Shown: piece after piece, positions 1,409-58,430 of the stretch
Layout of the letters: the number at the start of each line of letters is the position of its first letter
Position numbering within the stretch: position 1 is the first letter of the stretch
From: Patescibacteria group bacterium
GTDB lineage: Bacteria > Patescibacteriota > Minisyncoccia > JAHIHE01 > JAGLIN01
Direction of reading: 5' to 3'
Assembly (NCBI GenBank): GCA_029210775.1
Contig: JARGGI010000002.1
Coordinates: 76,478 to 140,477, forward strand
DNA: 64,000 nucleotides
The notes under the pieces: model-generated
The model's input: the letters and a program-made list of their open reading frames with translations, nothing else
Database searches by the model: none
What the model was told of the DNA's origin: nothing
Position numbers and translations under genes: made by a program

Positions 1409-3301
1409 CTATTCCACCACTTGCAAGTCCCAAAACTTTTTATATAATCCTTTTTTCTTTTTAATCAATTTTTGGTGATTGCCTTCCTCGATGATCTCTC
1501 CGCCATCAATCACATAAATCTGGTCAGCTTTGCGGGCGGTGGTCATTCTGTGAGTAATTATTATAATTGTTTTTTCTTTTTTTAATTTTTTTAAAATATC
1601 CACAATCTTTGCCTCATGCTCAGCATCAAGCTGATTTGTTCCTTCATCAAAAATGATAATCGATCGATTTTGAATCAAAACCCTTGCAATTGAAAGAAGT
1701 TGTAATTGTCCACCTGAAAACTGCACATCATCTCCAATAATTGCATCAAGCTTTTTGGGTAATTTTTCAATTTCATTTTTTAAATCTAAAACTTCAAAAA
1801 TTTTCCAAATTTTTTCATCTATATCTTTTTCAAATTCACCGAAAGAAATATTTTCACGAATAGAAAAACTTTCCAACATAAATGGTTCTTGCGGAATTAT
1901 GCTTATATATTTTTTTACATATTTTGGCTCAATGTTTATCAACTTATTATTTCCAATCAGAATGTTTCCTCTTTTTGGATCATAATTTCTCGTTATCAAA
2001 TTTACCAATGTTGTCTTACCACTTCCATTTCTACCAACTATCGCCGTAATTTCTCCTTTTTTAAATTTAATACCAATCTTCTTTAAAACTATTGGCATTT
2101 TTCCACCTTTCTTTGAAAGAATTTGCTTCCACTCAGACAAATCTCCAAACTCCCAGACAAATGAAGATTTTTTCTGAAGATTTTCTTCTTTCCTGACGAT
2201 ACTTTTTATATACTCACGCTCTTCTTTATAAAAATTAGGATAACTAAAATCAATATTTTCAAATAAAATATCACCATATACTGGATAATTTATATTTTTG
2301 ATTTTATCCAATTTTAGCCTTGGCTTCAAATTCATGAAAAATTCTAGTTTATGAAACTTAATTAAGATGCTATTTAAATCAGGAATGACTGAAGAAATAT
2401 CTCGAAATACTCCTTGTAAAAGTGAGATATATAAAATCAGCATTATAAAACTACCAATAGTTATATTTCCATTTGTAACCTGAAAACCTGCAAAAAGAGC
2501 TGTGAATATATAGGCAAAATTTTGAGCCAATGACTCTAATATTGAATATTTTCCATATATTTCCTCTTCCTTTTTCTCAAGATTATACCTGGTTTCTCGA
2601 AGTCCCCAATATTTTTTCATTACAAAATTGTCACTATCTATGTTCGTAATATTCTGAAGTTCATAAAAAATTAAATTCTGTAATTCCCAAAATCGTGACA
2701 GCTTCCTTTCTTTGACAACATTTAACATAATATCTTTTTTTGTTCTACTGTTAATTATAATAATTTGAACCACACCTGAAAAAAGCAAAACAATAAATAT
2801 ACTTGGGCTGAAATAGGCAACAATTGGCAAAATTCCAAACACTGCAACCGTGATATTTATTTGACTAGAAGCAAAACTCAAAAGTCTTCCTACTAAATAT
2901 GTAACATCTATAGAACTGTTCACTATTCTTCTATTGCGTGGATTTTTCATAAATCCAGCATCAAATTTTTCAATACAATTATACAATTCTTTTTCAAGTT
3001 TTACTGAACAATTATAATCAATTTTTTTATTATATACACTCGAAATTGATGCAAATATTTTCTCTAACAAATTCACAATAACTGAAAGAAAAACTATCAA
3101 TACAAAAATAAATTCAGGACTAGAAGAAAAAACACCAAAGAAATCGCTATATTTATTTTCCAACTGATCAACTTGAAGCTTACTGAAATATGGAATCAGA
3201 AGCACGAGTCCTGATTGAATAACTCCAATAACCAAAAAAATCACAAAAAGAATTTTGTTTTGTGAGATTATTTTGGAGATAAGTTTATATTGTTGAGTCA
3301 T
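1409..3301 (-). CDS. ABC transporter, fused permease/ATP-binding protein (exporter type)
   Basis: 630 aa. N-terminal 6-TM domain. C-terminal Walker A GRNGSGKTTLVNL, signature FSGGQLQLLSIARVL, Walker B IIIFDEGTNQLD. Confidence 0.8.
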   Translation of the reverse strand: MTQQYKLISKIISQNKILFVIFLVIGVIQSGLVLLIPYFSKLQVDQLENKYSDFFGVFSSSPEFIFVLIVFLSVIVNLLEKIFASISSVYNKKIDYNCSVKLEKELYNCIEKFDAGFMKNPRNRRIVNSSIDVTYLVGRLLSFASSQINITVAVFGILPIVAYFSPSIFIVLLFSGVVQIIIINSRTKKDIMLNVVKERKLSRFWELQNLIFYELQNITNIDSDNFVMKKYWGLRETRYNLEKKEEEIYGKYSILESLAQNFAYIFTALFAGFQVTNGNITIGSFIMLILYISLLQGVFRDISSVIPDLNSILIKFHKLEFFMNLKPRLKLDKIKNINYPVYGDILFENIDFSYPNFYKEEREYIKSIVRKEENLQKKSSFVWEFGDLSEWKQILSKKGGKMPIVLKKIGIKFKKGEITAIVGRNGSGKTTLVNLITRNYDPKRGNILIGNNKLINIEPKYVKKYISIIPQEPFMLESFSIRENISFGEFEKDIDEKIWKIFEVLDLKNEIEKLPKKLDAIIGDDVQFSGGQLQLLSIARVLIQNRSIIIFDEGTNQLDAEHEAKIVDILKKLKKEKTIIIITHRMTTARKADQIYVIDGGEIIEEGNHQKLIKKKKGLYKKFWDLQVVE

Positions 3302-3329: not shown

Positions 3330-3827
3330 CTATTCAACTTCCGCAACCAATGGATCTCTTCCTAAATCAATTTCTTCTTTGTCATTAAATCCATCATTAT
3401 CAGTGTCAGGATTTTCAGGATTAGTTCCTGCTTTTTTTTCATCAGCGTCTCCAAGTCCATCACTATCTAAATCAAGTTGTCCTGGTCCAAGTGGATCGTA
3501 ACCGCCTTCAACTTCTTGTCCATCAAAATAACCATCACCATCTGTGTCAGATTCAAGTGGATTTGTTTTCCAATTTCTAATTTCTATAAAATCAGTTAAT
3601 CCATCTCCATCTGTGTCAGCATTGTTTATATCAGTTCCAAATTCCTTTTCTTCACTATCAAGTAGGCCATCTTTGTCTGTATCAATATTTTTTACTTCTT
3701 CTTTTTTTTCTACTTTTGGAACAGCATTATCTTTTATATCTTCAATTTTCTTAATTGAACAACCCGAAAAAGAAAAAACTACCAACAACAAAAATGATAA
3801 TATCGCAATTTTTTTATAATTTTTCAT
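3330..3827 (-). CDS. lipoprotein with thrombospondin type-3-like Ca-binding repeats
   Basis: Signal peptide plus lipobox (LLVVFSFSGCS). Repeated DTDGDG / DxDxDGxxD motifs (DTDKDGLLDSEE, DTDGDGLTDF, DTDGDGYFDGQE, DSDGLGDADE, DTDNDGFNDKEE) and a GYDPLGPG segment. Confidence 0.6.
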   Translation of the reverse strand: MKNYKKIAILSFLLLVVFSFSGCSIKKIEDIKDNAVPKVEKKEEVKNIDTDKDGLLDSEEKEFGTDINNADTDGDGLTDFIEIRNWKTNPLESDTDGDGYFDGQEVEGGYDPLGPGQLDLDSDGLGDADEKKAGTNPENPDTDNDGFNDKEEIDLGRDPLVAEVE

Positions 3828-3875: not shown

Positions 3876-4871
3876 CTAATTATCCTCAAAATGCTTCATC
3901 CAATCTTTTTTGTAATTTATATTAAACTGTTTATAAAACTTCACTTCACTCACCTGCGCACACCATTCGTCACCGAACATAAAAATTGATCTTTTGATAT
4001 CAGAAAAGTATTGATAATTCGTTAAAGGATTACATTTTGTGCTTAACAAAGCGTAGTTTAGTGAATTTATAAGAAATCCTCCGTCATGCCTAAAATTTTT
4101 CAAATGCTCTGATTCATGGACTAAAAGAGATGCAAAATAAATTTTATCCTCAAGAGAATCAAAAGGTTTAGAAAAAACTGGATCAATTTCAATATAATCT
4201 TCTGGCATATGCGCCATCGCAAGAACGGGCTTCATACTTCTTTGAGAGAAATAGAATTGATTTGTATTGTTTACAATTTTTTCATATGCCTTTGGATCAA
4301 CGATTCGAAGAAAATGAAGTGTTTCTGAAATATTTTCCATTCCCTGAGATGATCCTTGTGTGCCTTGTATAATTTTTTCCGCTTTAATATCAATTTTTTT
4401 CTCATTACTATAGTCTAAAATTTTCTGATGCGTAAAAACATCAATAAAACTGTTAAGCAATGTAAAAATTATAATTATGTTTATTGTAAAAAATATTATA
4501 AATGCCTTTTGAAAATCTCGCTCTCCTTGGATTATAAATTCAAGAAAATTAATTTCTTTTTCAATTATTTTTTGCCTTCTTTCAAAAGTTAATTTATTTT
4601 TTTTTGATAGATAATAAATAAAAAAACGAATTGGCAAATATATCAAAACGAAACTTAGTGCAAAAACTCCAACTATACTTGGAAAAAGTCCGAAATCAAA
4701 AATGAAAGAAAGTAAAAATGAAGAAAATTTATAAAACACTATTGTAAAAAAAAACACGAAAAAATAAATAAAGAGTTCAAAAATAAACTCCCTGAAATTT
4801 TCTTTTTTAAGTTTCAAAATTTTTTGCCAAATTATTGCAAAAATAAAAATGAGTATTAAATCACCGATCAT
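3876..4871 (-). CDS. polytopic membrane protein with HEXXH motif (putative novel Zn-metallopeptidase)
   Basis: 331 aa. Several N-terminal TM helices. C-terminal soluble region with LLVHESEHLKNFRHDGG (HExxH). No recognisable family beyond the motif. Confidence 0.4.
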   Translation of the reverse strand: MIGDLILIFIFAIIWQKILKLKKENFREFIFELFIYFFVFFFTIVFYKFSSFLLSFIFDFGLFPSIVGVFALSFVLIYLPIRFFIYYLSKKNKLTFERRQKIIEKEINFLEFIIQGERDFQKAFIIFFTINIIIIFTLLNSFIDVFTHQKILDYSNEKKIDIKAEKIIQGTQGSSQGMENISETLHFLRIVDPKAYEKIVNNTNQFYFSQRSMKPVLAMAHMPEDYIEIDPVFSKPFDSLEDKIYFASLLVHESEHLKNFRHDGGFLINSLNYALLSTKCNPLTNYQYFSDIKRSIFMFGDEWCAQVSEVKFYKQFNINYKKDWMKHFEDN

Positions 4872-4873
4872 AT

Positions 4874-5827
4874 TTATTCTTCATTAAAAATTTCATTATA
4901 ATTTTCTTCATCAACTATTTTTATTTCATTTTTCAAATTAATATAATTTCCTGATGGATATTTATCTCCTAGAGATTTTGAAAGAGGATTATAGCCATTT
5001 TTTATTTCATCAAAATCAGTATATCCATCAAAATCAGTATCGGGGTTATTTTTATCTGTATTTATCGTCATTTCTACAAGATCAGACAAGCCATCATTGT
5101 CACTGTCTTCCTTTCTGAGCTTTATCTCAGTCGCTTCTTCAACTATATTAGAAGTCTTATTGTTACTCTCTGTGACTAAACTGGATTCATCTTTTTTTTC
5201 AACAACATAATCGGTACAATTAGCCGTCTGTAGAAATTCCAATGCCCTTTGATTATCATATTTCCTAGGACTATTTACGATTAAAAAAACGATTGAGCCA
5301 TCGACCTCTCCACATCTTAAAGTTCCAACCAACCCCTCTACCTTTTTCTCTAAAAGTTTATACGACTCTGTTTCAATCATAGAATAATAAGCCTCTTGGT
5401 TTCCAAGAATAATTGTCTCAAAACTTTTCTCATTATAATTATCATCAATATATCTTTCAAGAAAATCATAATCTAAATTTTCACCTGTTGTAGATCCATA
5501 ATTTTTTATCATATATTTACTTTCAAATCCCGTTGGCATATGCAAAATTGAAATATCGTTGCCACTTTTTTCATCTTTGATTTCAACCGTTTCAAGTGTT
5601 ATACCATATATAATTTCTTTAGTTGCCTTCTTCAGGTTATAGTCACTATCTGGAAATTCCCAATTGCCAATTTTTTGAGCGTCCTCAAGAGATATTGTTT
5701 TTTCTGCTTGGATAGCTATTAGAAAAACAGAACTTCCAAATAAAACAACAAACAAGAATGAACCAACTATTACTATTTTATTAATTATCTTTTGATTGCT
5801 ATTTTGTATTTCTTTAAATTGATCCAT
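4874..5827 (-). CDS. secreted/anchored protein with C-terminal TSP3-like module
   Basis: 317 aa. N-terminal signal-anchor (IVIVGSFLFVVLFGSSVFLIAI). C-terminus DSDNDGLSDLVE...NPDTDFDGYTDFDEIKNGYNPLSKSLG shares the module found in 3330..3827 and 8599..9405. Confidence 0.5.
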   Translation of the reverse strand: MDQFKEIQNSNQKIINKIVIVGSFLFVVLFGSSVFLIAIQAEKTISLEDAQKIGNWEFPDSDYNLKKATKEIIYGITLETVEIKDEKSGNDISILHMPTGFESKYMIKNYGSTTGENLDYDFLERYIDDNYNEKSFETIILGNQEAYYSMIETESYKLLEKKVEGLVGTLRCGEVDGSIVFLIVNSPRKYDNQRALEFLQTANCTDYVVEKKDESSLVTESNNKTSNIVEEATEIKLRKEDSDNDGLSDLVEMTINTDKNNPDTDFDGYTDFDEIKNGYNPLSKSLGDKYPSGNYINLKNEIKIVDEENYNEIFNEE

Positions 5828-5846: not shown

Positions 5847-7439
5847 TTAAATACCTAAAAATATAAGAACTACACCTACTATAATAGCCCACAATTTTGG
5901 ATGACTTTTTATTTTTTTGTTCTCAAGTTCCAAATAACTCAAAGAAACTTTTTGTCCGATTCCTCTAAAAAACCATCCCTGGGCAATTACTTGCTGACCA
6001 ATCAATTTGTTAATTTTTGTCAGTGCGAAAAAGAAATCACCAAGTTTTCCAAGCTTTGAATTATAATCTAAAAAAACCAAACCGCCGTTATCCTGAAACA
6101 TTAAGTCTTCGCTCAAAGCTGCACCTGCTTGTCCCCTTCCAATTATTTTTCCATCAAGCAAAATTCTTTTCCCTCTAATAGGAGAATTATAGATATCAGC
6201 CATCTGCTCTCTAATTGTTGTTTTCTCGGCGATGTTATTTGGAAACATATATAACGCTTTAATTATAAATGCCAAACCTAAAAATATGAACAGAATCTTC
6301 ATAGATCCTCCTGTTAATAATACTGCAGATAATCCAAACAAGATTGCAAAATGAGGAAGAAAAAACACGAAAACCCCTAATAAAAATCCATGATACAATT
6401 TTTCTTTATCTATCGTCATATTATTTATAGCTGCTCTGATGTTAAACATATTTTCCTTTCCAATAGATTTAGCAACTTCTCCAAGTCTTTCAATTCTCTT
6501 TCCGGTCAACGGATGAGTTGATCCTAACTCCAAAACAAATGCCCATGGACTCACAAAATCAAACGCCATAGTCTTGTTAATTGTCTCATTTGTGTCGGAC
6601 GACTTTAATGCCAAACCAAGTCCTTTGGCAGATTTTACATCCAAAATTCCCAGAGCTCTTGTGCTTTCCATGAGTCTTCCAGACTTTTTGTCATCTTCCT
6701 TTGCAACTATACCATAGGCAATTTTGATTAACGCAGTTGAAAGTTTATTTGGATCGCTAATATTTTTTGCTGCAAATTCATCAGCATAATATTCTCTAAC
6801 TCGAGATAAATATAAAATCACATAACTTCCAATGAAATAAAAAACATAGGATAGTAATCCGATATACACAAGCACTTGACCTTTTTTGTTCCTTCTTATT
6901 TGTTTTGATTTTGTAAAAATTACATACAATTCATATAAAATTTGCAAAAGAGTGCTTGCAATTGTCATAATTACAAAATCATAGTGGACAATATGACCAA
7001 TTTCATGAGCCAGTACCGCTTCCACTTCATCTTTTTCAAGATATGTAAAAAGACCCTTTGTAAAAACAAGTCTTGCATTTGATGGCAGTGAACCATATGT
7101 AAAAGCAGTAGGATTGTCATCATCAATAATTCCGATTTTTTTGGGAGATTTAACATTATTTTTTTGACAAATCGTTTTCAAAAAACTCGCCGTTTCTGGA
7201 TAAAGAGAATGTATATCTTCAATGGAATAAAATTTGATCTTATAAAAAAATCTCATCATAAAATCAGTAATCATCGGACCGATAATCCACATCAAGAAAT
7301 TAAAAACAATTGTCGCACCAATTAAAAAAGGAGCATTAATACTGCCCAATAAATAAGCTGCCGAAGCTAAAATTGTAAAAACGAATCCAGAGAGAATACC
7401 AAGTGTGACCAAACTTGCAAATTTTAGATTTTTAATCAT
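5847..7439 (-). CDS. M48 family (HtpX/Ste24-like) Zn-metalloprotease with ~210-aa C-terminal membrane/soluble extension
   Basis: HEXXH in VLAHEIGHIVHYDF, third-ligand motif REYYADEFAAK, and THPLTGKRIERL. It then continues with extra TM helices, a ~120-aa soluble segment and a terminal TM helix. Confidence 0.7.
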   Translation of the reverse strand: MIKNLKFASLVTLGILSGFVFTILASAAYLLGSINAPFLIGATIVFNFLMWIIGPMITDFMMRFFYKIKFYSIEDIHSLYPETASFLKTICQKNNVKSPKKIGIIDDDNPTAFTYGSLPSNARLVFTKGLFTYLEKDEVEAVLAHEIGHIVHYDFVIMTIASTLLQILYELYVIFTKSKQIRRNKKGQVLVYIGLLSYVFYFIGSYVILYLSRVREYYADEFAAKNISDPNKLSTALIKIAYGIVAKEDDKKSGRLMESTRALGILDVKSAKGLGLALKSSDTNETINKTMAFDFVSPWAFVLELGSTHPLTGKRIERLGEVAKSIGKENMFNIRAAINNMTIDKEKLYHGFLLGVFVFFLPHFAILFGLSAVLLTGGSMKILFIFLGLAFIIKALYMFPNNIAEKTTIREQMADIYNSPIRGKRILLDGKIIGRGQAGAALSEDLMFQDNGGLVFLDYNSKLGKLGDFFFALTKINKLIGQQVIAQGWFFRGIGQKVSLSYLELENKKIKSHPKLWAIIVGVVLIFLGI

Positions 7440-7678: not shown

Positions 7679-8569
7679 TTATCTTTTAGTTTCCATCCCC
7701 ATTAGAGCACTTATCCTTTCTTCCATCGGTGGATGAGTCATAAACATTTTATTTACTTTCTTTCCTTTAAATGGATTGGCAATGTAAAGATGAGCGGTAG
7801 CGCGGTTGGCGACTTCTAATTTTTCCGAGTCTCCGGAAATTTTTTGAAGGGCACTTGCAAGTCCATCTGGATAACGAGTTAAAAGCGCGCCGTCAGCGTC
7901 GGCTAAAAATTCTCTTTTGCGAGAAATCGCCAGCTGGATTAGCATCGCAAAAAGAGGGGCTAAAATGGAAAGTAAAATCGCGACAATTACTATCCAACCT
8001 CCCCCTCCTTTATTATCTCTATTTCCTCCTCCAAACCACAGAGAATGCCTGAAAAAGTCAGCCAAAAGCGCAACCATTCCAACCAAAACAACAACCACAG
8101 TCGCCAGTAAAATATCCCGGTTTCCAATATGCGAAAGCTCGTGAGCGATAACTCCTTCCAATTCACTGCGATCCAATTTTTGCAGAAGTCCACTCGTCAC
8201 TGCCACCACGGCATGCTCCGGATCTCTTCCTGTGGCAAAAGCGTTCGGCGCGGTGTCATCTATAATATAAATTTTAGGAAGCGGAAGTCCTGCTGTGATA
8301 CACAAATTTTCCACAAGACGATAAAGTTCTTTATTGTCATTAAATTCAACGAGCTTTGCCTTGCTCATCGCAAGAACCAATTTATCAGAATACCAATAGC
8401 TTCCAACACTCATCAAAATACTAAAAAATACAGCGAACCATAAAATCGTGCTTGACCCCATCGCCTGAGAAAAAACCCAGCCTACTGTAATTACAAAGAC
8501 TAAAAACACTGACATTAAAATGTAAGTATTGCGAGTATTTCTGTCTGATTGGGTGTATAAAGTTGGCAT
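7679..8569 (-). CDS. htpX: protease HtpX (M48 peptidase)
   Basis: 296 aa. Two N-terminal TM helices, HEXXH (VIAHELSHIGNRD), EFLADADGA, C-terminal MTHPPMEERISAL. Canonical HtpX layout. Confidence 0.85.
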   Translation of the reverse strand: MPTLYTQSDRNTRNTYILMSVFLVFVITVGWVFSQAMGSSTILWFAVFFSILMSVGSYWYSDKLVLAMSKAKLVEFNDNKELYRLVENLCITAGLPLPKIYIIDDTAPNAFATGRDPEHAVVAVTSGLLQKLDRSELEGVIAHELSHIGNRDILLATVVVVLVGMVALLADFFRHSLWFGGGNRDNKGGGGWIVIVAILLSILAPLFAMLIQLAISRKREFLADADGALLTRYPDGLASALQKISGDSEKLEVANRATAHLYIANPFKGKKVNKMFMTHPPMEERISALMGMETKR

Positions 8570-8598: not shown

Positions 8599-9405
8599 TT
8601 ATAACTTCCCTTCCCCAAGAGGATTATAACCATTTTTTACCTCATCACCATCTGAATATCCGTCTCCATCTGTATCTGTTTTATTTGGGTCTGTTTTATA
8701 TATGGATGTTTCTTCATAATCCGAGAGTCCATCATTGTCAGCATTCTGAGATTTATCAGTTATGTTATTATTACAAATTTGATTTAATTTTTCATCTATA
8801 ATGTTTTTGCATAATTCTCTATTTTGTCCTATGAATGCTGTTTCATAATAAATGATATCCTTGCAAGCTTGCTGAATATTTTCAGGTTTTAGATTTGAGC
8901 AATCATCAGGATTCCTATATACTAAAAAAATATTTTTCAAACAATTTGTAAAATCACTACCTTCTGAAAACTGACATTTTTCATTTCTCTTTGCTGCAAT
9001 TCTTTGTACGGTTGGATCTGCACATTCAATTATCATTTTTTGATCTCCAATTTCACCACAAACACTACTATCGCCTTTTATAAAGGCCACAGAAGAAACG
9101 CAATCACTGTGATCGCTTCTTCTTTTGCATAGATTGGAATAATTTGTATTATTTATTGCTGCCTCAAGATAGAATTCTAATTGCGAAGAAGTAAATTCCG
9201 GATGAATGTTTTTCAGCTCTTGTAAAATTTCATCAATATCTTCATTATAATCATCTTCTATCGTTAAATTTTTTTTATTTACTAATTTTTCATTTTCATT
9301 ATTTACCAAGCTATCTTTTTTAAAAATAAGCACAAAAACTAAGGCAGATAGTAAAATTAATACTATACATCCTAAAATTATAATTTTTCTTTTTTTGTTT
9401 AACAT
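8599..9405 (-). CDS. secreted Cys-rich protein with C-terminal TSP3-like module
   Basis: 268 aa. Signal-anchor. About 14 Cys in the mature part. C-terminus NADNDGLSDYEE...DTDGDGYSDGDEVKNGYNPLGEGKL. Confidence 0.5.
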   Translation of the reverse strand: MLNKKRKIIILGCIVLILLSALVFVLIFKKDSLVNNENEKLVNKKNLTIEDDYNEDIDEILQELKNIHPEFTSSQLEFYLEAAINNTNYSNLCKRRSDHSDCVSSVAFIKGDSSVCGEIGDQKMIIECADPTVQRIAAKRNEKCQFSEGSDFTNCLKNIFLVYRNPDDCSNLKPENIQQACKDIIYYETAFIGQNRELCKNIIDEKLNQICNNNITDKSQNADNDGLSDYEETSIYKTDPNKTDTDGDGYSDGDEVKNGYNPLGEGKL

Positions 9406-9414
9406 AAATTTAGA

Positions 9415-11379
9415 CTATTTCCAACATCTAAAAGTCGCAGTCGTGTGATTTGTTCTTAAATACCAATTTTGAAGATTAGCAGGATCCTGACCTAATCTAC
9501 AATTATATCCACCAACACCACCGCAAGGTCGCATTTCTTGAACAACTACATATGGTCCAGGCATTCCTATAGTATAACCCCTACCACAACAATTGCATCC
9601 ATCTTTTCCACAGCCAACAAGTTCACAACAAGCATATCCAGTTCTTGCGACACTTGTAGAATCACAAGCAGAAGAGGTTCCTCCAACTGGAGTTGGTGGC
9701 AAAGCAGTGCAAGCCTCCCAACCTGAACAACACTGATTACAGTTTTGTGTTCCAGCAACTGGAACCCCAGTACAATGCGCAGGCATTCCATCAAAAAATG
9801 TATCTTCACAATCTCTAATTCCAAAAGGAGCAGGAGCATTATAATCACAAACCTCCAATCCATTTACAATTCCGTCACCACAAAAAGTCGGGACTGTATT
9901 CAAATTACAATCAAATCTTGCCCAACTTCCATCTCCTAAAGGATCATTAAACCCAAAAAGAACCATGCCAGTATTAATAATAGTCCATGCAACAAAAACA
10001 ACAACAAATCCAAAGACAATTTTGTTCATATATTGTTTTGCAGATAGAAGCAAATTTGAATCTCCACCAGTTTTAACGTGAATAAATCCCGCAACAATAA
10101 TAGACAAAATTGTTATAAGAATAATCAATTCCATCAAAAAATTAATAACATTACTTGCTAAAACAACACTATGACAAATATTGCAAGACTCTGTCTCATT
10201 CCAAACAGTATCAAGATTATCAGTTATTCTTCCACAAGGAACCAATCCTCCTGAATTATCAAAAAGAGAAGTACAATCTAACGGATCGGGATTACATTTA
10301 CAATAAGAACAGCCTAATCCTCCACAAAAAGTAGCATCCGTTCCATCACATTGTTCATTACCATCATTTGCAGGACCACCCAGTCCAATATCATTTGGAA
10401 TTTGAGCAATATTATCACCACAATAAGTATTGCATGTGCAATCTGTATCACACCCATATCCCAAACATGCATTATTATCTATTCCATCACACTGTTCATT
10501 ACCGTCATTTGCAGGTCCGCCCGTTCCGGCATCATTAGGAGCTTGGATAACATCATCTCCACAAAAAGAAGGTGGAGCACACATCAATTCAATGTCGGGA
10601 TAATCCATATATTGGTTCCATTTTTGAGAAACAGACAAAAATCCGTTTGGATTATATAATTTTGTATTAGGTTCTGAAACTTCACAATCATCATATTCTG
10701 TGCAAGAAGCATCCACTTGAGTACATGTATTTCCAAAAATAGCTGCTGTCCAATTATAATAAGAAAGAATGGAAGGCAAGGGAGAAGGAGAAGAAGCACA
10801 AAGACAAGAATCTGAAACTCCCACAACACAAACATCACTAGAGGTTAATGGAAAAATATAAGAAGAGGTTCTTTGCCCATTCGTATCAGTTCTTATTTTG
10901 CATACACCAGATCCTCCACCAAGATCTATAGGTTCGAAATTTATTTCATAAGTTGTTCCCGCAACCAAAGACACAAAGCCATTTAGTACTAAAATATTAT
11001 TTCCAACAACACCACCTGCCCAATTATCAACTTCTAGGTCAATCGTATTTATAACCCAATTATTTGAACTAATATAAACATTAACTTTATTTCTTGAAGT
11101 AAAACAACTATTATCGCTTAGGTTGATATTAATTTTATTAATCAACATATCAGCTGCAGGAGTAAACTTAAAAAAAGATGTTACGGGATCTCCACTAGCA
11201 TCAAATCCAACTAGATCCAAGTTATTATCAGCTCCTCCATCTCCTTGTTGCATTAAATTATAATCAACACATTGAGCCGAAACATCATTAGTCGACAAAA
11301 CAAAAAAAGACACCAAAAAAACAAAAAGAAATGAAAATGAAATTCTTGTTATTTTTTTTGCAATATCTTTTGTGATCAT
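9415..11379 (-). CDS. large Cys-rich surface protein with tandem CGD..NDGNEQCDG repeats (Myxococcus-type Cys-rich repeat-like) and an internal 2-TM hairpin
   Basis: Track ORF is 9415..11463. The start was chosen at the Met that begins the signal peptide MITKDIAKKITRISFSFLFVFLVSFFVLSTNDVSA (ATG at 11379). Two tandem ~45-aa repeats (CGDDVIQAPNDAGTGGPANDGNEQCDGIDNNAC... and CGDNIAQIPNDIGLGGPANDGNEQCDGTDATFC...) and a third degenerate copy (FCGDGIVNGLEVCDY). Two hydrophobic helices (FLMELIILITILSIIVAGFIHV and IVFGFVVVFVAWTIINTGMVLFGF) are separated by a K-rich loop in the middle of the protein. Confidence 0.6.
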   Translation of the reverse strand: MITKDIAKKITRISFSFLFVFLVSFFVLSTNDVSAQCVDYNLMQQGDGGADNNLDLVGFDASGDPVTSFFKFTPAADMLINKININLSDNSCFTSRNKVNVYISSNNWVINTIDLEVDNWAGGVVGNNILVLNGFVSLVAGTTYEINFEPIDLGGGSGVCKIRTDTNGQRTSSYIFPLTSSDVCVVGVSDSCLCASSPSPLPSILSYYNWTAAIFGNTCTQVDASCTEYDDCEVSEPNTKLYNPNGFLSVSQKWNQYMDYPDIELMCAPPSFCGDDVIQAPNDAGTGGPANDGNEQCDGIDNNACLGYGCDTDCTCNTYCGDNIAQIPNDIGLGGPANDGNEQCDGTDATFCGGLGCSYCKCNPDPLDCTSLFDNSGGLVPCGRITDNLDTVWNETESCNICHSVVLASNVINFLMELIILITILSIIVAGFIHVKTGGDSNLLLSAKQYMNKIVFGFVVVFVAWTIINTGMVLFGFNDPLGDGSWARFDCNLNTVPTFCGDGIVNGLEVCDYNAPAPFGIRDCEDTFFDGMPAHCTGVPVAGTQNCNQCCSGWEACTALPPTPVGGTSSACDSTSVARTGYACCELVGCGKDGCNCCGRGYTIGMPGPYVVVQEMRPCGGVGGYNCRLGQDPANLQNWYLRTNHTTATFRCWK

Positions 11380-11555
11380 TTTTGTATTATAAATTTTATA
11401 TGACAGTTTTGCGCGCATAGTTACGGGATTGCCACGGTCATGTCTCCCTCTTAATAACAGCAATATGTCATATTTTACTAAACTCTAAAACTTTTTGGCA
11501 CTTCTTTTTCTTTCGGCAACGAAACGAAAGCGAAAAAGCTCCAAATTTATTCAAT

Positions 11556-12176
11556 TTACCCAACAAACTCCTTTACTTTTTTTCGCAATTCCTTTTTTAT
11601 CTTATCCCAATCCGCACTTTCAAGCATCAATGGCATTGGATCTTGCTCTGCGTCCTGAAAATAAATCAAGCTTTTCAGAATATGCAATTGACTGTATTTT
11701 ATCTCTTTGTATTTTTTATCAAAAAAAGATAAAATCTCTTTCAAAGAATATTTTTTAAGCAGAAAATATAAATCTATAAAATCCTTCTTGCTTCCTCTGC
11801 TTGAAATTGCGTCTATCTTCATGCAAGCAATATCTTGGGCACTTGCTAATTTTAAATTCTTGCCGTATTTGATTAAAGGAAACAGCATTTTATATTTATA
11901 TCCCAAAAAGCTGATTTTAACTCCGTTTATGCTTGCGTTTAAAGTTCTTTTTTCTTCGGAGTAAACTTTCAATTTCCCTATTTGCGTTAAAATGGTTTTT
12001 AATTCTTTCGTGAAAAAATCATTTTTTGAGAATAAATCAAGATCAATTGATTTTCTATGTCCCAATTGCAACGCCAAAGCAGTCCCGCCGGCCAAATAGA
12101 AATCTTTAATTATTTCTATTTTGTCTAACGATTCCAAAACGCACTTTGTTTTTGTATTGATGACTTTTTCGTACAT
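11556..12176 (-). CDS. nucleotidyltransferase, AbiEii/AbiGii toxin family-like (short form)
   Basis: 206 aa. N-terminal LAGGTALALQLGHRKSIDLDLF fits the Pol-beta NTase motif hG[GS]x9-13DhD and the GGTAL...RxSxDLDF pattern typical of AbiEii-family proteins. Confidence 0.55.
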   Translation of the reverse strand: MYEKVINTKTKCVLESLDKIEIIKDFYLAGGTALALQLGHRKSIDLDLFSKNDFFTKELKTILTQIGKLKVYSEEKRTLNASINGVKISFLGYKYKMLFPLIKYGKNLKLASAQDIACMKIDAISSRGSKKDFIDLYFLLKKYSLKEILSFFDKKYKEIKYSQLHILKSLIYFQDAEQDPMPLMLESADWDKIKKELRKKVKEFVG

Positions 12177-12415
12177 TTTTTATTAACTGACAAGTTAAAT
12201 ATAAGCTCCCAAAAATTAGCGTTTTTTTTATCGGGATAATTAATTTTCAAAGCCGCTTCTTTTATTTTTTCATACGGATAACGTTTCTTTAAAATATCAT
12301 AATCCTTCTTATCTCCAAACAACAAAACCCGCTTTATAATAAAATCAGCGTTCTCTTTATAGTCAAGATTTTCAAAATCAACATCCCAAAACAAATGTTT
12401 ATCTATTTTAGCCAT
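12125..12415 (-). CDS. small protein overlapping the AbiEii-like gene by 52 nt (putative cognate partner/antitoxin)
   Basis: 96 aa (MAKIDKHLFWDVDFENLDYKENADFIIKRVLLFGDKKDYDILKKRY...). The overlap implies translational coupling. The function call is inference from gene context. Confidence 0.35.
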   Translation of the reverse strand: MAKIDKHLFWDVDFENLDYKENADFIIKRVLLFGDKKDYDILKKRYPYEKIKEAALKINYPDKKNANFWELIFNLSVNKKCTKKSSIQKQSAFWNR

Positions 12416-12444: not shown

Positions 12445-13008
12445 CTAAAACTCCACTTTCAGAGTCTCTTTTTCTTTCGGCTCTTCAATCTCAAAAAATT
12501 CTCTTTTTTTAATATTTAAAATCCCAGCGACAATACTATCGGGAAAAACAAGAATCTTCGTGTTGAGATCGCGCACATTGCCATTGTAAAATCTTCTTGA
12601 CGCCTGAATTTTATTTTCCGTATCAGAAAGCTCTCTTTGCAGTTCAAGAAAATTCTCGTTGGCTTTTAACTGCGGATAATTCTCACTAACCGCGAACAAG
12701 CTTTTCAAAGCTCCAGAAAGCATATTTTCCGCTCCTGCTTTTGCCTCAGGATTTTGAGTATTCATTGCGTTTGCTCTTGCCTTTGTCACTTTTTCAAAAA
12801 GCTCTCTTTCATGAGTTGCATAACCTTTCACAGTATTGATGAGGTTTGGGATTAAGTCATATCTTCTTTTAAGCTGCACATCAATGTCGCTCCATGCTTC
12901 ATTTGTTCGAACTTGCAATCTAACAAGAGCGTTGTATATCATCACAAACCACAATACTACTGCCACAATGATGACCAAAAGCACGATTAAAATTAAATTT
13001 GTTTCCAT
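12445..13008 (-). CDS. lemA: LemA family protein
   Basis: N-terminal TM helix followed by MIYNALVRLQVRTNEAWSDIDVQLKRRYDLIPNLINTVKGYATHERELFEKVTKARA, the conserved LemA core. Confidence 0.8.
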   Translation of the reverse strand: METNLILIVLLVIIVAVVLWFVMIYNALVRLQVRTNEAWSDIDVQLKRRYDLIPNLINTVKGYATHERELFEKVTKARANAMNTQNPEAKAGAENMLSGALKSLFAVSENYPQLKANENFLELQRELSDTENKIQASRRFYNGNVRDLNTKILVFPDSIVAGILNIKKREFFEIEEPKEKETLKVEF

Positions 13009-25739: not shown

Positions 25740-25823
25740 GGGGGTGTGGCGGAATTGGCAGACGCACTGGCTTCAGGTGTCAGTGATAGCAATATCGTGG
25801 GAGTTCGACTCTCCCCATCCCCA
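25740..25823 (+). tRNA. tRNA-Leu (anticodon CAG), class II with long variable arm
   Basis: Folded by hand. Acceptor GGGGGTG/CATCCCC (one G-U pair), U8, 3-bp D stem GCG/CGC with 11-nt loop, anticodon stem CTGGC/GTCAG with loop TTCAGGT (anticodon CAG, G37), variable stem GATA/TATC, T arm GGGAG-TTCGACT-CTCCC, discriminator A. CCA is not encoded. Confidence 0.8.
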
Positions 25824-51417: not shown

Positions 51418-54400
51418 TCACTCTTTTCGATCAATATTTCTGAAATATCCCGTTCCGGAAGGAATCAATCTTCCAATAATAACATTTTCTTTTAATCCTC
51501 TGAGTTTGTCTTCTTTTCCAGTAGTTGCTGCTCCTATAAGAACTCGGGCAGTTTCTTGGAATGAAGCAGATGACAAAAAGCTTTCTGTAGTAAGAGATGC
51601 TTTCGTAATTCCTAATAGCAATTGTTCGGCAGTTGCTGAATCTTTAATAGTATCAGTTATTTCTTTATTTTCTTTGTTTTCATTTTCAATAATTTCATTA
51701 GCCTCAAGGAGTTGAGCTTTTTCAACAATATCACCTATCAAGAGGTTCGTATTTCCAGGATTTTTAATTTTTACCCTTGAAAGCATTTGCCTAATTATAA
51801 TTTCAATATGCTTATCATCTATTCCTTCTCCTTGAGAAGTATAAACTTGCTGCACTTCTTTTGTGATATATTTTTGAATTTCTTCAATGCCTTTCAAATT
51901 AAACAGCTCGTGAATATCAACATGTCCTTCTACTATCTGTTGTCCGGCAAGTATAAGTTCATCTTTCTTGACTAAAATTGAAGTATCCTTGTCAATTACA
52001 TAACTTTTAACATCTTCCACCTTTTCGTTTTCAGCAATCTCTTCTGCTGTCGGCTTGAATTTAATATGAATAATTCTTGAATCTTGTGTTTCTTCAATCT
52101 CTTGAACTTTTCCATCAACCTCCGAAATTAATGCCTTGCCTTTTGGAAGCCTTGCTTCAAATATTTCTTCAACACGAGGAAGACCTTGAGTAATATCTTT
52201 TCCAGCAACACCTCCGCTATGGAATGTTCTCATAGTAAGCTGAGTTCCTGGCTCTCCAATAGCTTGTGCTGTAACAATTCCTACAGCCTGACCAATTTCC
52301 ACCAATTTATTTTTTCCAAGATCATATCCATAACATTTCTGACACACTCCTCTTTTGGCCTTGCATTTTATAATACTTCTAATCCAAATTCTCTCTATTC
52401 CTTCTTTTTCAATCTTTTCTGCATCAATTTTACTTATCTGCTGTCCAGCTTTTACAATAACATTTTTACTCTTAGAGCTCTTTATATCTTTAAGAGCTGT
52501 TCTTCCTCTCAATCTCATCGATACAGTTCTACCAATATCTAAATGTTCACTTGCAATAACCTCTGTTCCTTCTGTATCATGACAATCTATCTCATGAATA
52601 ATTACATCTTGAGCAACATCAACAAGTCTTCTAGTTAAATAGCCTGCTGTCGAAGTTCTAAGAGCAGTATCTGCCATTCCTTTTCTTGTTCCATGAGTAG
52701 AAATGAAATATTCCAATACATTAAAACCTTCTTTAAAACTACTCTTAATTGGAAGTTCAATTGTTTCTCCAGATGGATTTACAACCAAACCCTTCATACC
52801 ACCCATCTGAGTTATAACAGCCCAATTACTTCTTGCTCCTGAGTTAATCATATATGCTACTGGACTTTCTTCTCCAATGGTCTTAGGAATTTCCTGAGAA
52901 ATTTTGTCTTTAATTTCGTTCCAAACTTCAATTGATTTTATTCTTCTTTCATTCTCTGTAAGCAATCCTTCATCATATTGTTCTCTGATTTCATCAATTT
53001 TTTTATCCCCTTCTTTAAAAAGTTTTTTCTTTATATTCGGAATTTTTACATCATCCATTCCCCAGCTTAATCCAGATTTAGTTGCATATTTAAATCCAAG
53101 AGATTTTATGCTATCAATCAATAATACCGTTTTTTCTTCTCCAATTTTTTCCAACGAATTTGCAATAAGAGTTTTCAGAGCACTTGAATCCATAACCTCG
53201 TTCATAAACATAAGTTCTTCTGGCAAAGACTGATTGAAAATTATACGTCCTACGGAAGTTTTAATAAGAGACTCCTTTTTATTGTTTGAATTTTTTCTTG
53301 AAGAATTTTTCCATGAATTATTTTTCAGTTTGATTTCTGACCGAAGATTGATTAAACCAAGCTCATAAGAAACTACTGCTTCTTCAAAAGAATTAAAAGC
53401 TTTTCCCTCGCCCTTTTCACCAGGCAAAATCTTTGTCATATAATAGCAACCCAAAACTATATCCTGAGAAGGAACCACAATCGGTTCTCCCGTTGCTGGC
53501 TTTAGCAAGTTTTTTGAAGAAAGCATAATTTCTTGTGACTCTCGCTGTGCTTCTTTTGTAAGAGGAAGATGAACTGCCATTTGATCTCCATCAAAATCCG
53601 CATTAAAAGCCTTACAAACCATAGGATGAATTTGAATTGCTTTTCCTTCAATCAATACTGGATAGAAGGCTTGAATACCAAGACGATGTAAAGTAGGAGC
53701 ACGATTTAAAAGCACCGCCTTGTTTTGAATCACTTCTTCTAAAATATCCCATACTTCTGTAATTCCTTGCTCAATTAATTTGTTCGCACTTCTCACATTA
53801 TACGCAAAATCTCTTTCAATAAGCTCCTTCATTACGAAAGGCTTAAAAAGCTCCAAGGCCATTTTCTTTGGAAGTCCACATTGACTGAGTTTCAATGTCG
53901 GTCCAATTATAATTACTGAACGAGCAGAATAATCAACACGCTTTCCTAAAAGATTTTGTCTAAATCTCCCCTGTTTTCCTTTAAGCATGTCTGCAAGAGA
54001 TCTTAATTGTCTTCTTTTTCCAGTGGCTGCCATTGTTGCCTGCCCTCTTCTGGCAGAATTATCAATTAAGGCGTCAACTGCTTCTTGAAGCATTCTTTTT
54101 TCGTTTCTTGAGATAACTTCAGGCGCTCCAAGCTCTATAAGTTTCTTTAGACGATTATTTCTATTTATAACTCTTCTATACAAATCATTTAAATCAGAAG
54201 TTGCAAACCTCCCACCATCCAACTGAACCATTGGTCTAAGATCTGGTGGAATAACTGGAATAACAGTTAAACACATCCAATCAGGTTTTATATTCGCTTT
54301 CACAAAACCCTGAACAAGACGCAATCTTTTCATCATTTTTTTTCTTTGAGCAGATGTTTTTGGAAGTTGATTTATTTCTTTTTCAAGTCTTTGAGCTAAT

Positions 54401-55101
54401 TTTTTCAAATCGATATTTTGCAAAACTTGTTTAATTGCCTGAGTTCCAATATCCGCCTTAAAAACTGAAGCATATTTCAAAGAAAGATTTCTATATTCAA
54501 TTTCAGAAATAACCTTAAGTCTTTTGATACTTTTTAATTCTTCCTTTGCCTTGTCTCTTGCCTCTTTAATTTCATTAATTTGAGGAATAGTTAGCTTTTC
54601 TTTTCCACTTTTTACTTTTGATTTATATTCAGCTTCAATTTGATCAAAAATCACTTTTCTTTCTTCTTCGTTAACATCTATTATCAAATAACTTGCAAAA
54701 TAAATAACTCTCTCCAGCTCCTGAATAGACATATTAAGTATTAATCCAACGCTTGAAGGGACGCCTCTTAAAAACCAAACATGAGATATTGGTACGGCCA
54801 ATTTTATGTGTCCCATTCTATCTCTTCTTACTATAGATTTTGTAACCTCTACACCACACTTGTCACAAACAATTCCTTTATATCTTATCCTTTTATATTT
54901 TCCACAATAACATTCCCAATCTTTTGTTGGCCCAAATATTTTTTCACAAAATAGCCCATCTTTTTCAGGTCTTTGCGTTCTATAATTTATTGTTTCTGGT
55001 TTCAAAACTTCCCCAAATGACCAATCCAAAATATTTTCAGGGCTAGCAATAGTGAGTTTTACGGCTTCAAAATCTTCAACTTTTGTACCTATATTTGACA
55101 T
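51418..55101 (-). CDS. rpoC: DNA-directed RNA polymerase subunit beta'
   Basis: 1227 aa. Zn-binding CYCGKYKRIRYKGIVCDKCG, NADFDGDQM catalytic motif. Confidence 0.97.
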   Translation of the reverse strand: MSNIGTKVEDFEAVKLTIASPENILDWSFGEVLKPETINYRTQRPEKDGLFCEKIFGPTKDWECYCGKYKRIRYKGIVCDKCGVEVTKSIVRRDRMGHIKLAVPISHVWFLRGVPSSVGLILNMSIQELERVIYFASYLIIDVNEEERKVIFDQIEAEYKSKVKSGKEKLTIPQINEIKEARDKAKEELKSIKRLKVISEIEYRNLSLKYASVFKADIGTQAIKQVLQNIDLKKLAQRLEKEINQLPKTSAQRKKMMKRLRLVQGFVKANIKPDWMCLTVIPVIPPDLRPMVQLDGGRFATSDLNDLYRRVINRNNRLKKLIELGAPEVISRNEKRMLQEAVDALIDNSARRGQATMAATGKRRQLRSLADMLKGKQGRFRQNLLGKRVDYSARSVIIIGPTLKLSQCGLPKKMALELFKPFVMKELIERDFAYNVRSANKLIEQGITEVWDILEEVIQNKAVLLNRAPTLHRLGIQAFYPVLIEGKAIQIHPMVCKAFNADFDGDQMAVHLPLTKEAQRESQEIMLSSKNLLKPATGEPIVVPSQDIVLGCYYMTKILPGEKGEGKAFNSFEEAVVSYELGLINLRSEIKLKNNSWKNSSRKNSNNKKESLIKTSVGRIIFNQSLPEELMFMNEVMDSSALKTLIANSLEKIGEEKTVLLIDSIKSLGFKYATKSGLSWGMDDVKIPNIKKKLFKEGDKKIDEIREQYDEGLLTENERRIKSIEVWNEIKDKISQEIPKTIGEESPVAYMINSGARSNWAVITQMGGMKGLVVNPSGETIELPIKSSFKEGFNVLEYFISTHGTRKGMADTALRTSTAGYLTRRLVDVAQDVIIHEIDCHDTEGTEVIASEHLDIGRTVSMRLRGRTALKDIKSSKSKNVIVKAGQQISKIDAEKIEKEGIERIWIRSIIKCKAKRGVCQKCYGYDLGKNKLVEIGQAVGIVTAQAIGEPGTQLTMRTFHSGGVAGKDITQGLPRVEEIFEARLPKGKALISEVDGKVQEIEETQDSRIIHIKFKPTAEEIAENEKVEDVKSYVIDKDTSILVKKDELILAGQQIVEGHVDIHELFNLKGIEEIQKYITKEVQQVYTSQGEGIDDKHIEIIIRQMLSRVKIKNPGNTNLLIGDIVEKAQLLEANEIIENENKENKEITDTIKDSATAEQLLLGITKASLTTESFLSSASFQETARVLIGAATTGKEDKLRGLKENVIIGRLIPSGTGYFRNIDRKE

Positions 55102-55157
55102 ATATTTAGAACTTAATGTTTATAACAAATGAAAAAATTTATCTTGGTTTTTTATTT

Positions 55158-58100: not shown

Positions 58101-58430
58101 CTCTTTTTTAATTTTATCTTTTTCACTTGCAAGTTTCACTTTACATCGAAGTGGCGCCTCAAAAGATAAATTTTTCTTTTTTGAAGTTTCCTCATTATAT
58201 TTTGGAGTATCAAGATAATAATCAATAAAATCAAGACTTATGTCTTTATTAAAACTAATAATAGGAGAAACCTCTTCCAACAACTCTTTCAAGCCCTTTT
58301 CGATAAACCATTTATAAGATGTAATTTGAGCTTCTATGAGATAGGGCGGAGCCATTGGTTCTCCCGTCTCATGAAAATATTTTCTGCTTGTTTTTAGATT
58401 TGTCTTTTCTTTTGTTGTTGGCATAGACAT
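55158..58430 (-). CDS. rpoB: DNA-directed RNA polymerase subunit beta
   Basis: 1090 aa. Conserved rif-region and C-terminal motifs (GGQRFGEMEVWALEG). Directly upstream of rpoC. Confidence 0.97.
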   Translation of the reverse strand: MSMPTTKEKTNLKTSRKYFHETGEPMAPPYLIEAQITSYKWFIEKGLKELLEEVSPIISFNKDISLDFIDYYLDTPKYNEETSKKKNLSFEAPLRCKVKLASEKDKIKKEQEIYFGEFPLMTDRGTFIINGVERVVVSQLIKSPGIFFSVSSEKEDKRYFGAKLIPTRGAWLEVETEASGAIFVKIDKKRKVAVTSLLRAFGLGSDEKILELFSDSDTGNIKFIKETIKKDVAKTQGEGFIEVYKRIRPGDLATADNARQLIEGMFFKFDRYDLGKVGRHKINQRLDANLEDTVLNRVFQLSDLVLTIKEIIRLNNTLNAKGDDIDHLGNRRVRTVGELVQERFRLGFMRVERNIKDRMSTLDINTVTPSQLINTRPLIAVIREFFMSSQLCQFMDQVNPLAELEHKRRLSAMGPGGLTRERAGFEVRDVHRSHYGRVCPIQTPEGPNIGLVGHLALYGKINDYGFLETPYIKVKNGKVTDEIIYLDATQEEESIIAHASVPYDDNSKKFVQKEIQARIKGNPGITEAEKVNFMDISSNQAISVATSLIPFLEHDDAHRALMGSNMQRQAVTCISSQSPIIGTGLEKRTAIDSGHVVLAQKDGEVIEVDGSHIKIKNSDSKVENYDLYNFVRSNAATCMTQYPRVRKGQKIKKGDLLADGSGTENGEIALGQNLKVAFMSWGGCNFEDAIILSQRVVEDDRFSSIHIEDFSIDVRDTKLGPEVITRDIPNVGEEKLKDLDEDGIIRIGAEVRSGDILVGKITPKGESDLTAEERLLRSIFGEKARDVKDTSLYLQHGEQGKVVDVKIFSREQGDKLSSGVIKKIQVSVAQLRKIQVGDKLAGRHGNKGVISTILPMEDMPYLEDGSTVDIILNPLGVASRMNIGQILETHLGWAASKLGYKVACQSLAGVTEQQIKEELKKAGLPEDGKVQLFDGKTGKKFDNKSTVGITYILKLNHLVEDKIHMRSIGPYSLITQQPLGGKAQFGGQRFGEMEVWALEGHGAANTLQEVLTIKSDDVLGRSKAYESIIKGESIKSPHIPASFHVLVNELKALSLNVELVGAKQKEEKEENENDEDRENKQEKEEKTAIE

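Follow-up and report, generated by a model that had tools for sequence, protein, structure and literature searches.

Calcium loops built on a DxDxDG motif are shared by the type 3 repeats of animal thrombospondin and COMP and by the calcium domain of anthrax protective antigen (PA), and the calcium sites of PA and thrombospondin have been described as homologous binuclear sites (Rigden et al., PMC3123361). In the surface protein Bap of Staphylococcus aureus, a twin DxDxDG pair with 23-residue spacing lies internally in a 2276-aa LPXTG-anchored protein and serves as a switch for amyloid-like aggregation; point mutations in its EF-hand 2/3 loops abolish calcium sensing (review PMC7785521). In Myxococcus, DxDxDG repeats occur in CglD, a calcium-dependent lipoprotein of the adhesin type (bioRxiv 10.1101/2023.10.19.562135). 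Here we compared with these systems an Asp-rich module found in three proteins, A, B and C, which are encoded in a 64,000-nucleotide (nt) stretch of a Patescibacteria group bacterium genome (contig JARGGI010000002.1, positions 76,478 to 140,477; the window). A model-generated note (the original prediction) had proposed that three otherwise unrelated secreted proteins end with this module, and that its C-terminal KNGYNPLG could act as a common sorting, anchoring or partner-binding tag. What the three proteins share is an ordinary and very widespread element of about 45 residues, namely two known repeats of the bacterial thrombospondin type 3 (TSP3) kind arranged as a pair (Pfam family PF18884, TSP3_bac).

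The open reading frames (ORFs) of A, B and C were all present on the minus strand of the window, whose GC content is low (about 30%), and a six-frame scan for DxDxDG combined with G-Y-[ND]-P-L returned these three ORFs only. PF18884 matched A, B and C at 30.1, 50.0 and 77.7 bits, respectively (cut-off 25 bits; E-values of 4e-7, 3e-13 and 5e-22), and precomputed annotation places the same family on the database entries P0001, P0271 and P0385, which are identical to window proteins; P0001, entitled 'MAG: thrombospondin type 3 repeat-containing protein [Patescibacteria group bacterium]', is identical to protein A. The likeness of the Asp-rich part to TSP3/OmpA-type calcium-binding repeats that had been proposed was thereby borne out, and the module sequences had been quoted correctly. 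The three carriers are also otherwise unrelated, as had been stated: pairwise BLASTP gave no relationship outside the module (best E-value 0.035). All have an N-terminal hydrophobic anchor or signal (a long hydrophobic helix at the start of A and B, a lipobox in C). Within the module A and B are 64% identical by hand count of the alignment, compared with 44-61% identity between the B module and its matches in arbitrary proteins of other organisms, so that the A-B similarity is only modestly higher.

The ligand pattern D1-x-D3-x-D5-G6-x-x-D9-x-x-E12 recurs every 22-23 residues, and two repeat subtypes could be distinguished: an L-type (DG-L ... G-T-D-P) and a Y-type (DTDGDG-Y-xDGxEVKN-G-Y-NP-LGxGK). 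The ligand columns of both repeats are invariant in the 12 sequences of the A family and the 26 of the B family, with D241, D243, D245, G246 and E252 in repeat 1 and D263, D265, D267, G268, D271, D273, E274, G278 and P281 in repeat 2 of A, and D223, D225, G226, L227, D229 and E232 in repeat 1 of B. The 50-bit match of B falls into two stretches, of which residues 244-263 (DTDGDGYSDGDEVKNGYNPL) correspond to positions 1-20 of the 22-position PF18884 profile; KNGYNPLG therefore lies inside the repeat and completes its fold, rather than being added as a tail. Only B, in which the five residues GEGKL follow NPL before the stop codon, truly ends with the module. A continues for a further 34 residues, which are kept in 12 of 12 family members (I302, Y310 and F314 invariant) and are predicted to form helices at residues 292-305 and 307-314; given this conserved extension, the module is not terminal in A. 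In C the GGYDPLGPG variant belongs to the third of five repeats (starting at nt 3683, 3617, 3548, 3473 and 3407) and is followed by 49 residues that include two further repeats; the C family comprises 47 full-length members, of which 45 have the lipobox and 29 the L-L-Y-L-L layout, with a family ending of GRDPLVAE. Furthermore, the family-specific signatures DFDEI (A family) and DGDEV (B family) are kept across genomes, indicating that the module was inherited vertically with each protein rather than exchanged as a cassette or shuffled as a tag. A recent A-B duplication or gene conversion was rejected, as the two genes share a single 23-nt near-identical DNA stretch and match at 48 of 63 nt in repeat 2; the conserved family-specific signatures likewise speak against it.

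The Y-type repeat proved to be a distinct subtype, and to this extent the reputed distinctiveness of KNGYNPLG stood. We counted subtypes in 797 repeats from small-protein hits and in 5138 repeats from giant proteins: the Y-type made up 27% of the former (218 repeats) and 2% of the latter. An aromatic residue at position 7 was coupled with an aromatic tail residue in 216 of the 218 Y-type repeats. In 194 of the 218 cases the Y-type repeat came 22-23 residues after an L-type repeat (spacing of 22 or 23 aa in 193 of the 194 L-to-Y pairs), and in 189 it closed the repeat block. It was followed by the C-terminus in 127 cases, by 16-45 residues in 16, by more than 45 residues of another domain in 46 and by an L-type repeat in 29; 62 of the 218 thus preceded at least 16 non-repeat residues. 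In other phyla, the Y-type closed the block in 15 of 17 cases and was never C-terminal. In the predicted fold of B, a short G-x-G-K-L strand closes the repeat unit by pairing with its G-Y residues. We therefore define the structural unit as a pair, L-type then Y-type, with a short cap; KNGYNPLG is the mark of the block-closing repeat and not of the protein's end. Compared with PF18884 in general, the window proteins and many small Patescibacteria proteins use this two-repeat unit, with an aromatic second repeat ending in G-x-G-K-L, and the cleaner definition of the unit is a descriptive gain of the analysis.

Structure prediction had been suggested as a check for a calcium-binding loop. The AlphaFold2 (AF2) model of B, based on the 26-sequence alignment, had a mean predicted local distance difference test (pLDDT) score of 87.9, with 91-96 in the module, which was laid out as loop, helix 229-235, loop and helix 252-257, with a beta-bridge between residues 260 and 267. 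The modelled module superposed on Bap chain 7c7u_A with a root-mean-square deviation (rmsd) of 0.9 Å over 45 columns at 47% identity (Foldseek rank 1, probability 1.00). By sequence as well, the best match in the PDB was Bap (7C7R/7C7U; E = 7e-6 for C and 4e-4 for the B module); the match covers DYDKDGLLDRYE...DTDGDGKNDGDEV and corresponds to Bap EF-hand motifs 2 and 3 (residues 729-741 and 752-764). Although the twin DxDxDG pair and its spacing on a surface protein are common to both, the second repeat of Bap is not Y-type (DG-K ... N-Y-K-T-S-P-L) and the carriers are otherwise not homologous. PF03495, the calcium domain of anthrax PA and binary toxins, matched B at 19.5 bits and PF02412, the animal TSP_3 family, matched C at 12.4 bits, both below the curated cut-offs; these sub-threshold matches fit the published homology of DxDxDG binuclear calcium sites. 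The modules of the window differ from animal type 3 repeats in having none of their disulfide-bonded Cys residues and in their domain context. No canonical EF-hand family of Pfam (PF00036/PF13405) matched A, B or C at E<=1, and matches to calmodulin and lanmodulin (PDB, NCBIfam) were weak only. The modelled fold suggests that the window proteins bind calcium.

To follow the module beyond the window, the 48-residue B module was scanned, without a profile, against 1.84 billion representative sequences with HMMER, and 30,216 representative clusters matched at E<=1e-3. The best 150 of these were all giant repeat proteins (481-6495 aa, 7-65 internal copies), which made them unusable for assessing a C-terminal bias in small proteins, and similarity-search hits were used instead. 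With the A-family alignment and one genome per species, loci were obtained from Verrucomicrobiota, Proteobacteria, Planctomycetota, Bacteroidota, Spirochaetia and several archaea; the contig scan with this alignment returned mostly generic TSP3 matches and one full-length A homolog (L049). In the broad sense, then, the module is ubiquitous and mostly internal. The original prediction had itself named a mid-protein position in most homologs, or identity with a known Pfam C-terminal sorting domain, as outcomes that would count against it, and what was found largely does so: the module is a catalogued Pfam family, mostly internal in giant proteins. In the literature, we found PF18884 mentioned in one preprint only, on giant Omnitrophota proteins, and no paper linking TSP3 repeats with Patescibacteria.

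In small Patescibacteria proteins the position of the module is of a different kind. When 234 small hits were clustered by their non-repeat parts, 45 families resulted; the block lay within 15 residues of the C-terminus in 25 of them, near the C-terminus in four, near the N-terminus in nine and internally in seven. An independent sample obtained with C as query had a C-terminal block in 52 of 61 proteins, 44 of these ending with a Y-type repeat. Both samples are biased by similarity to their queries, and even so the C-terminal tendency looks real: that small surface proteins of Patescibacteria mostly bear the unit at their membrane-distal end is a further descriptive gain. The predicted C-terminal position thus holds for many small carriers and fails for two of the three window proteins and for N-terminal or internal copies elsewhere. 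The same capped module (...NGYNPLIKAPNDKL or ...NGYNPNGPGKL) directly follows an N-terminal anchor in P0054, the rhodanese P0085 and the sortase P0309, with 200-390 further residues beyond it, and in YkuD transpeptidases and OmpA-family proteins the repeats are N-terminal or internal. One to several TSP3 pairs were seen between membrane anchor and catalytic domain in Patescibacteria sortases, YkuD L,D-transpeptidases and a rhodanese protein (P0014, P0058, P0309 and P0314; P0033, P0036 and P0355; P0085); this layout suggests a calcium-binding stalk for wall-active enzymes. P0015 and P0029 consist of a cytoplasmic low-complexity head, one transmembrane (TM) helix, a linker and TSP3 pairs only; with no other ectodomain present, the repeat block itself must be the functional ectodomain.

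Taking together the family membership, ligand conservation, predicted fold with its match to the Bap site, distribution and position observed above, we consider it likely that two acidic loop-helix units fold, locked by calcium, into a rigid extracytoplasmic knob that acts as a structural or spacer element and probably in adhesion. The module, about 45-50 residues long, would be a mini-domain that binds calcium and is complete in itself. Its repeats of 22-23 residues each contribute an acidic loop (D-x-D-x-D-G-x-x-D-x-x-E) and a short helix; the first is L-type and the second Y-type, closed by the G-x-G-K-L strand. An N-terminal anchor or lipid would tether the carriers to the membrane, with the module facing outward to free Ca2+, which by analogy with Bap, thrombospondin and anthrax PA may lock the Asp/Glu loops into the rigid knob. 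The element stands at either end of the ectodomain in Patescibacteria and forms long arrays in giant surface proteins of many phyla. The role as a calcium-dependent spacer with probable surface adhesion is one that we infer, and several observations weigh against it. A purely structural role does not obviously explain why most small carriers from Patescibacteria have the block at the C-terminus, nor why the G-x-G-K-L ending of the B family is strongly conserved as far as the stop codon. The first ligand of repeat 1 in B is N, not D. In P0015 and P0029 the block needs a function of its own, one that cannot be named with certainty. Finally, calcium binding is itself something that we infer, and the AF2 models hold no ions.

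Of the roles that differ from a calcium-locked spacer, the one that fares best is a dockerin-like docking unit, in which unrelated exoproteins are brought together at one place through binding of the two segments to a common partner (a scaffold, the cell wall or a host surface); it carries forward the partner-binding part of the original prediction, and we regard it as unlikely. Its gross logic is that of type I dockerins, which likewise comprise two ~22-residue calcium-loop and helix segments and are often C-terminal on unrelated secreted proteins. However, dockerins have 12-residue EF-hand loops whose ligand spacing differs from the DxDxDGxxDxxE of the module. The dockerin family PF00404 did not match A, B or C at E<=1, and no cohesin was found among 17 window proteins compared with Pfam (7 at E<=1, 10 at E<=0.001; the rest of the genome was not searched), leaving no cohesin-like partner near the genes. 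A binding function would suit the carriers that consist of a TM anchor and TSP3 pairs alone, and cell-wall enzymes and OmpA_C domains are found together with the module, whereas an N-proximal module resembles a stalk rather than a tip. Bacterial adhesion proteins with TSP3 repeats do exist, namely CglD, Bap and the MtsC and MtsD cohesion proteins of NCBIfam. CglD, MtsC and MtsD are TSP3-repeat surface proteins of Myxococcus, to which weak NCBIfam matches were obtained through the repeats, but the scores (23-43 bits) fall far below the equivalog cut-offs of 350-800, and the proteins themselves are large, multidomain and from another phylum.

A more speculative proposal, which we think quite improbable, is that the Y-capped pair is a Patescibacteria-typical display or docking unit for Ca2+-bridged contacts with wall, scaffold or host, and that, in the conserved LemA/M48 cluster, A, B and the all-TSP3 lipoprotein C are extracytoplasmic partners of the paired M48 membrane proteases. 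If so, the unit would sit at the membrane-distal C-terminus of many small anchored proteins and would be a kind of calcium-dependent envelope module so far undescribed in these episymbionts.

Table 1. Repeat units, carrier proteins and neighbouring genes in the window (nucleotide positions of the window; amino-acid positions of the respective protein).
Feature	Position	Strand	Description	Match or remark
Protein A	4874..5827	-	317 aa; N-terminal TM anchor/signal, alpha/beta ectodomain aa 45-205, disordered linker, TSP3 pair, helical C-terminal tail	
A repeat 1	5042..5107	-	aa 241-262, DSDNDGLSDLVEMTINTDKNNP, L-type	PF18884 stretch 241-258, 30.1 bits
A repeat 2	4979..5041	-	aa 263-283, DTDFDGYTDFDEIKNGYNPLS, Y-type, block-closing	pLDDT 87-92
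A C-terminal extension	4877..4978	-	aa 284-317, KSLGDKY...YNEIFNEE, 34 residues, helical hairpin	
Protein B	8599..9405	-	268 aa; N-terminal TM anchor, Cys-rich all-alpha ectodomain, TSP3 pair as true C-terminus	
B repeat 1	8677..8745	-	aa 221-243, NADNDGLSDYEETSIYKTDPNKT, L-type	loop + helix 229-235
B repeat 2 and cap	8602..8676	-	aa 244-268, DTDGDGYSDGDEVKNGYNPLGEGKL, Y-type	stop codon directly after
Protein C	3330..3827	-	165 aa; small lipoprotein, nearly all five TSP3_bac repeats; FSGC lipobox	
C repeat block	3342..3683	-	aa 49-162, L-L-Y-L-L	PF18884 77.7 bits, 5 stretches
C repeat 3	3474..3548	-	aa 94-118, DTDGDGYFDGQEVEGGYDPLGPGQL, Y-type, mid-protein; holds GGYDPLGPG	
LemA family protein	12445..13008	-	head of cluster	PF04011 7e-62
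DUF6922 + AbiEii pair	11556-12415	-	AbiEii: type IV toxin-antitoxin nucleotidyltransferase; between LemA and Cys-rich gene	
Cys-rich membrane protein	9415..11463	-	682 aa, TTG start, upstream of B	
HtpX-type M48 zinc metalloprotease	7679..8569	-	296 aa, directly downstream of B	PF01435 5e-34
Long M48 metalloprotease	5847..7439	-	530 aa, directly upstream of A	PF01435 4.5e-31
Orphan membrane protein	3876..4871	-	331 aa, HESEH motif, between A and C	
ABC exporter	1409-3301	-	generic MsbA/HlyB-like half-transporter, next to C	

The neighbourhood of the three genes was compared with that of their relatives (Table 1). In transcription order it comprises LemA, the DUF6922/AbiEii pair, the 682-aa Cys-rich protein, B, the HtpX-type M48 protease, the long M48 protease, A, an orphan protein with an HExxH motif, C and the ABC exporter. 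The 296-aa protease matched the NCBIfam model for HtpX (NF003425) at 5e-100 and 334.5 bits, just under the curated cut-off of 355 bits. LemA also heads the cluster in L001 (LemA - Cys-rich - B - HtpX) and in L089 (LemA - T4SS_pilin-domain protein - 521-aa TSP3 protein - HtpX - C). In L001, L086 and L087 the B homologs are likewise preceded by homologs of the Cys-rich protein, which makes the two genes a conserved pair; the related proteins in L089 and L091 carry the type IV secretion system pilin domain PF18895 (T4SS_pilin). The gene order around the HtpX-type protease is conserved in L001, L089 and L091, the last of which reads Cys-rich - HtpX - HtpX-like - C. Homologs of the long M48 protease (58-62% identity) precede A homologs in L003, L005, L088 and L090; three of these loci (L003, L088 and L090) share the order HtpX - M48_535 - A - HtpX-like (321-340 aa) - C - MFS (major facilitator superfamily), and L005 has M48_532 - A paralog - A. 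The slot of the 331-aa orphan is thus taken in relatives by an HtpX-like M48 protease of 321-340 aa. The orphan had no match in Pfam, NCBIfam, the PDB or by phmmer and no similarity to any M48 ORF or in related loci; it may be either a non-orthologous replacement or an extremely diverged protease. The conserved cluster of LemA, T4SS-pilin-like, M48-protease and TSP3-protein genes is a third descriptive gain, and a literature search found nothing on an association of LemA, HtpX and TSP3. As little is known of the envelope and host-attachment biology of Patescibacteria, these descriptions offer usable leads, though no new category.

These gene orders bear directly on the idea that through the module A, B and C serve the neighbouring M48 proteases as substrates, inhibitors or extracytoplasmic cofactors, which we judge very unlikely. 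The arrangements HtpX - M48_535 - A - HtpX-like - C and LemA - Cys-rich - TSP3 - HtpX together recur in at least seven loci, and in all six relatives an M48 gene is found 22-30 nt upstream of C. By contrast, no M48 gene was found near the other TSP3 genes at any of 81 loci (14 from other Patescibacteria and 67 from other phyla), so that it is with the A, B and C gene families, and not with the module, that M48 is associated. Moreover, the A homolog of L049 stands without M48, and HtpX is missing beside distant B homologs that still have the Cys-rich neighbour; nor does adjacency alone prove a physical interaction. The candidacy of M48 as the co-occurring processing enzyme, for which a check had been proposed, was rejected on these grounds: the synteny is real for the three families and absent at the 81 other loci. 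We read the locus as a conserved envelope gene cluster that incidentally includes three TSP3 families, and not as a tag-plus-processing-enzyme system.

A C-terminal sorting or anchoring signal for a dedicated processing enzyme, comparable to LPXTG and sortase, PEP-CTERM and exosortase or the type IX secretion system (T9SS), is highly improbable, even though most small carriers from Patescibacteria have the block at the C-terminus, where it ends in a conserved ...NGYNP[LN]GxGKL, at least 25 unrelated families carry it, and metalloprotease genes flank A, B and C. Of the window proteins, A and C continue beyond the module; the capped module stands ahead of large domains in P0054, P0085 and P0309, and the substantial fraction of Y-type repeats with non-repeat residues behind them adds to this. 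The hydrophobic segment and basic cluster of a sortase- or exosortase-type signal (LPXTG, PEP-CTERM) are absent from the C-termini of A, B and C, which are hydrophilic (...DEENYNEIFNEE, ...NPLGEGKL and ...DPLVAEVE, respectively), and none of the three proteins matched a sorting-domain family in Pfam or NCBIfam. The T9SS C-terminal domain (Por_Secre_tail) likewise had no match in these databases, and it is a beta-sandwich of ~80-100 aa, whereas the module is a loop-helix-loop-helix of 45-50 aa. No RTX family of the type I secretion system (T1SS) matched A, B or C in Pfam or NCBIfam; RTX substrates carry GGxGxDxUx nonapeptide repeats and a C-terminal secretion signal and have no N-terminal signal peptide, whereas A, B and C all have an N-terminal anchor, signal or lipobox. 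The ABC exporter next to C gave NCBIfam E-values down to 1.6e-64 and scored well below the curated whole-protein cut-offs. On the modelled fold, the module appears confident, ordered and identical to the internal calcium site of Bap, and the M48 genes that might supply a processing enzyme are lacking at the 14 other TSP3 loci from Patescibacteria and the 67 from other phyla. In Escherichia coli, the catalytic site of HtpX is on the cytoplasmic side. By this analogy, and from the TM pattern of the 296-aa protein, the catalytic site of the latter would also face the cytoplasm, and the module the outside. The sorting-signal reading was accordingly rejected, no signature having been found in the C-termini, Pfam or NCBIfam, and the claim of a new sorting tag is not supported, the module being catalogued and protein A already annotated as TSP3.

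A chance similarity of low-complexity Asp-rich sequence, to which the biased composition and the AT-rich genome might lend some credit, has a negligible probability in view of Pfam E-values down to 5e-22, invariant ligand columns and a confident AF2 fold that matches a crystal structure.

Outside the module, the three proteins have distinct ectodomains. That of A (aa 45-205) is predicted to be an alpha/beta sandwich resembling PsbP/Mog1/DcrB/LpqN (Foldseek on the AF2 model, probability ~0.99, E ~2e-3) and contains two invariant Cys residues, C172 and C204; in the A paralog of L005, an A-like region is fused to an Abhydrolase_2 domain. The TSP3 pair of the A family is always followed by the ~34-aa helical hairpin (DKY...KVKKDIK.ID...Y..LF), and this composite of pair and hairpin is duplicated in P0002 and also occurs on a different 384-aa protein adjoining the A homolog in L049 (4435-5589). 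The all-alpha, Cys-rich ectodomain of B has 11 invariant or nearly invariant Cys residues in the 26-sequence family, with C93 only nearly invariant, and a search of the PDB with its AF2 model gave no significant match.

Several minor features of the neighbouring genes were also recorded. Inside the 682-aa Cys-rich protein are two tandem repeats of ~45 aa each (...GGPANDGNEQCDG...), and a pair of TM helices lies near aa 430-500; its only match was a weak one to DUF4215; in L086, the Cys-rich/B pair adjoins PrgI-, TraC- and VirB4-like genes. The 331-aa orphan has four or more N-terminal hydrophobic helices, with HESEH near its C-terminus. A homologous DUF6922/AbiEii pair (AbiEii 43% identity) occurs near the M48/A/C cluster of L003 (2591-3495), at a different point. 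The only Rfam match in the window was a single tRNA gene (25740-25823, plus strand); other genes of the window are housekeeping genes, including those for GroEL, UvrA, RNase J and a TyrRS/TrpRS-type synthetase, and the region 51418-58430 contains ORFs that, by size alone, correspond to RNA-polymerase subunits.

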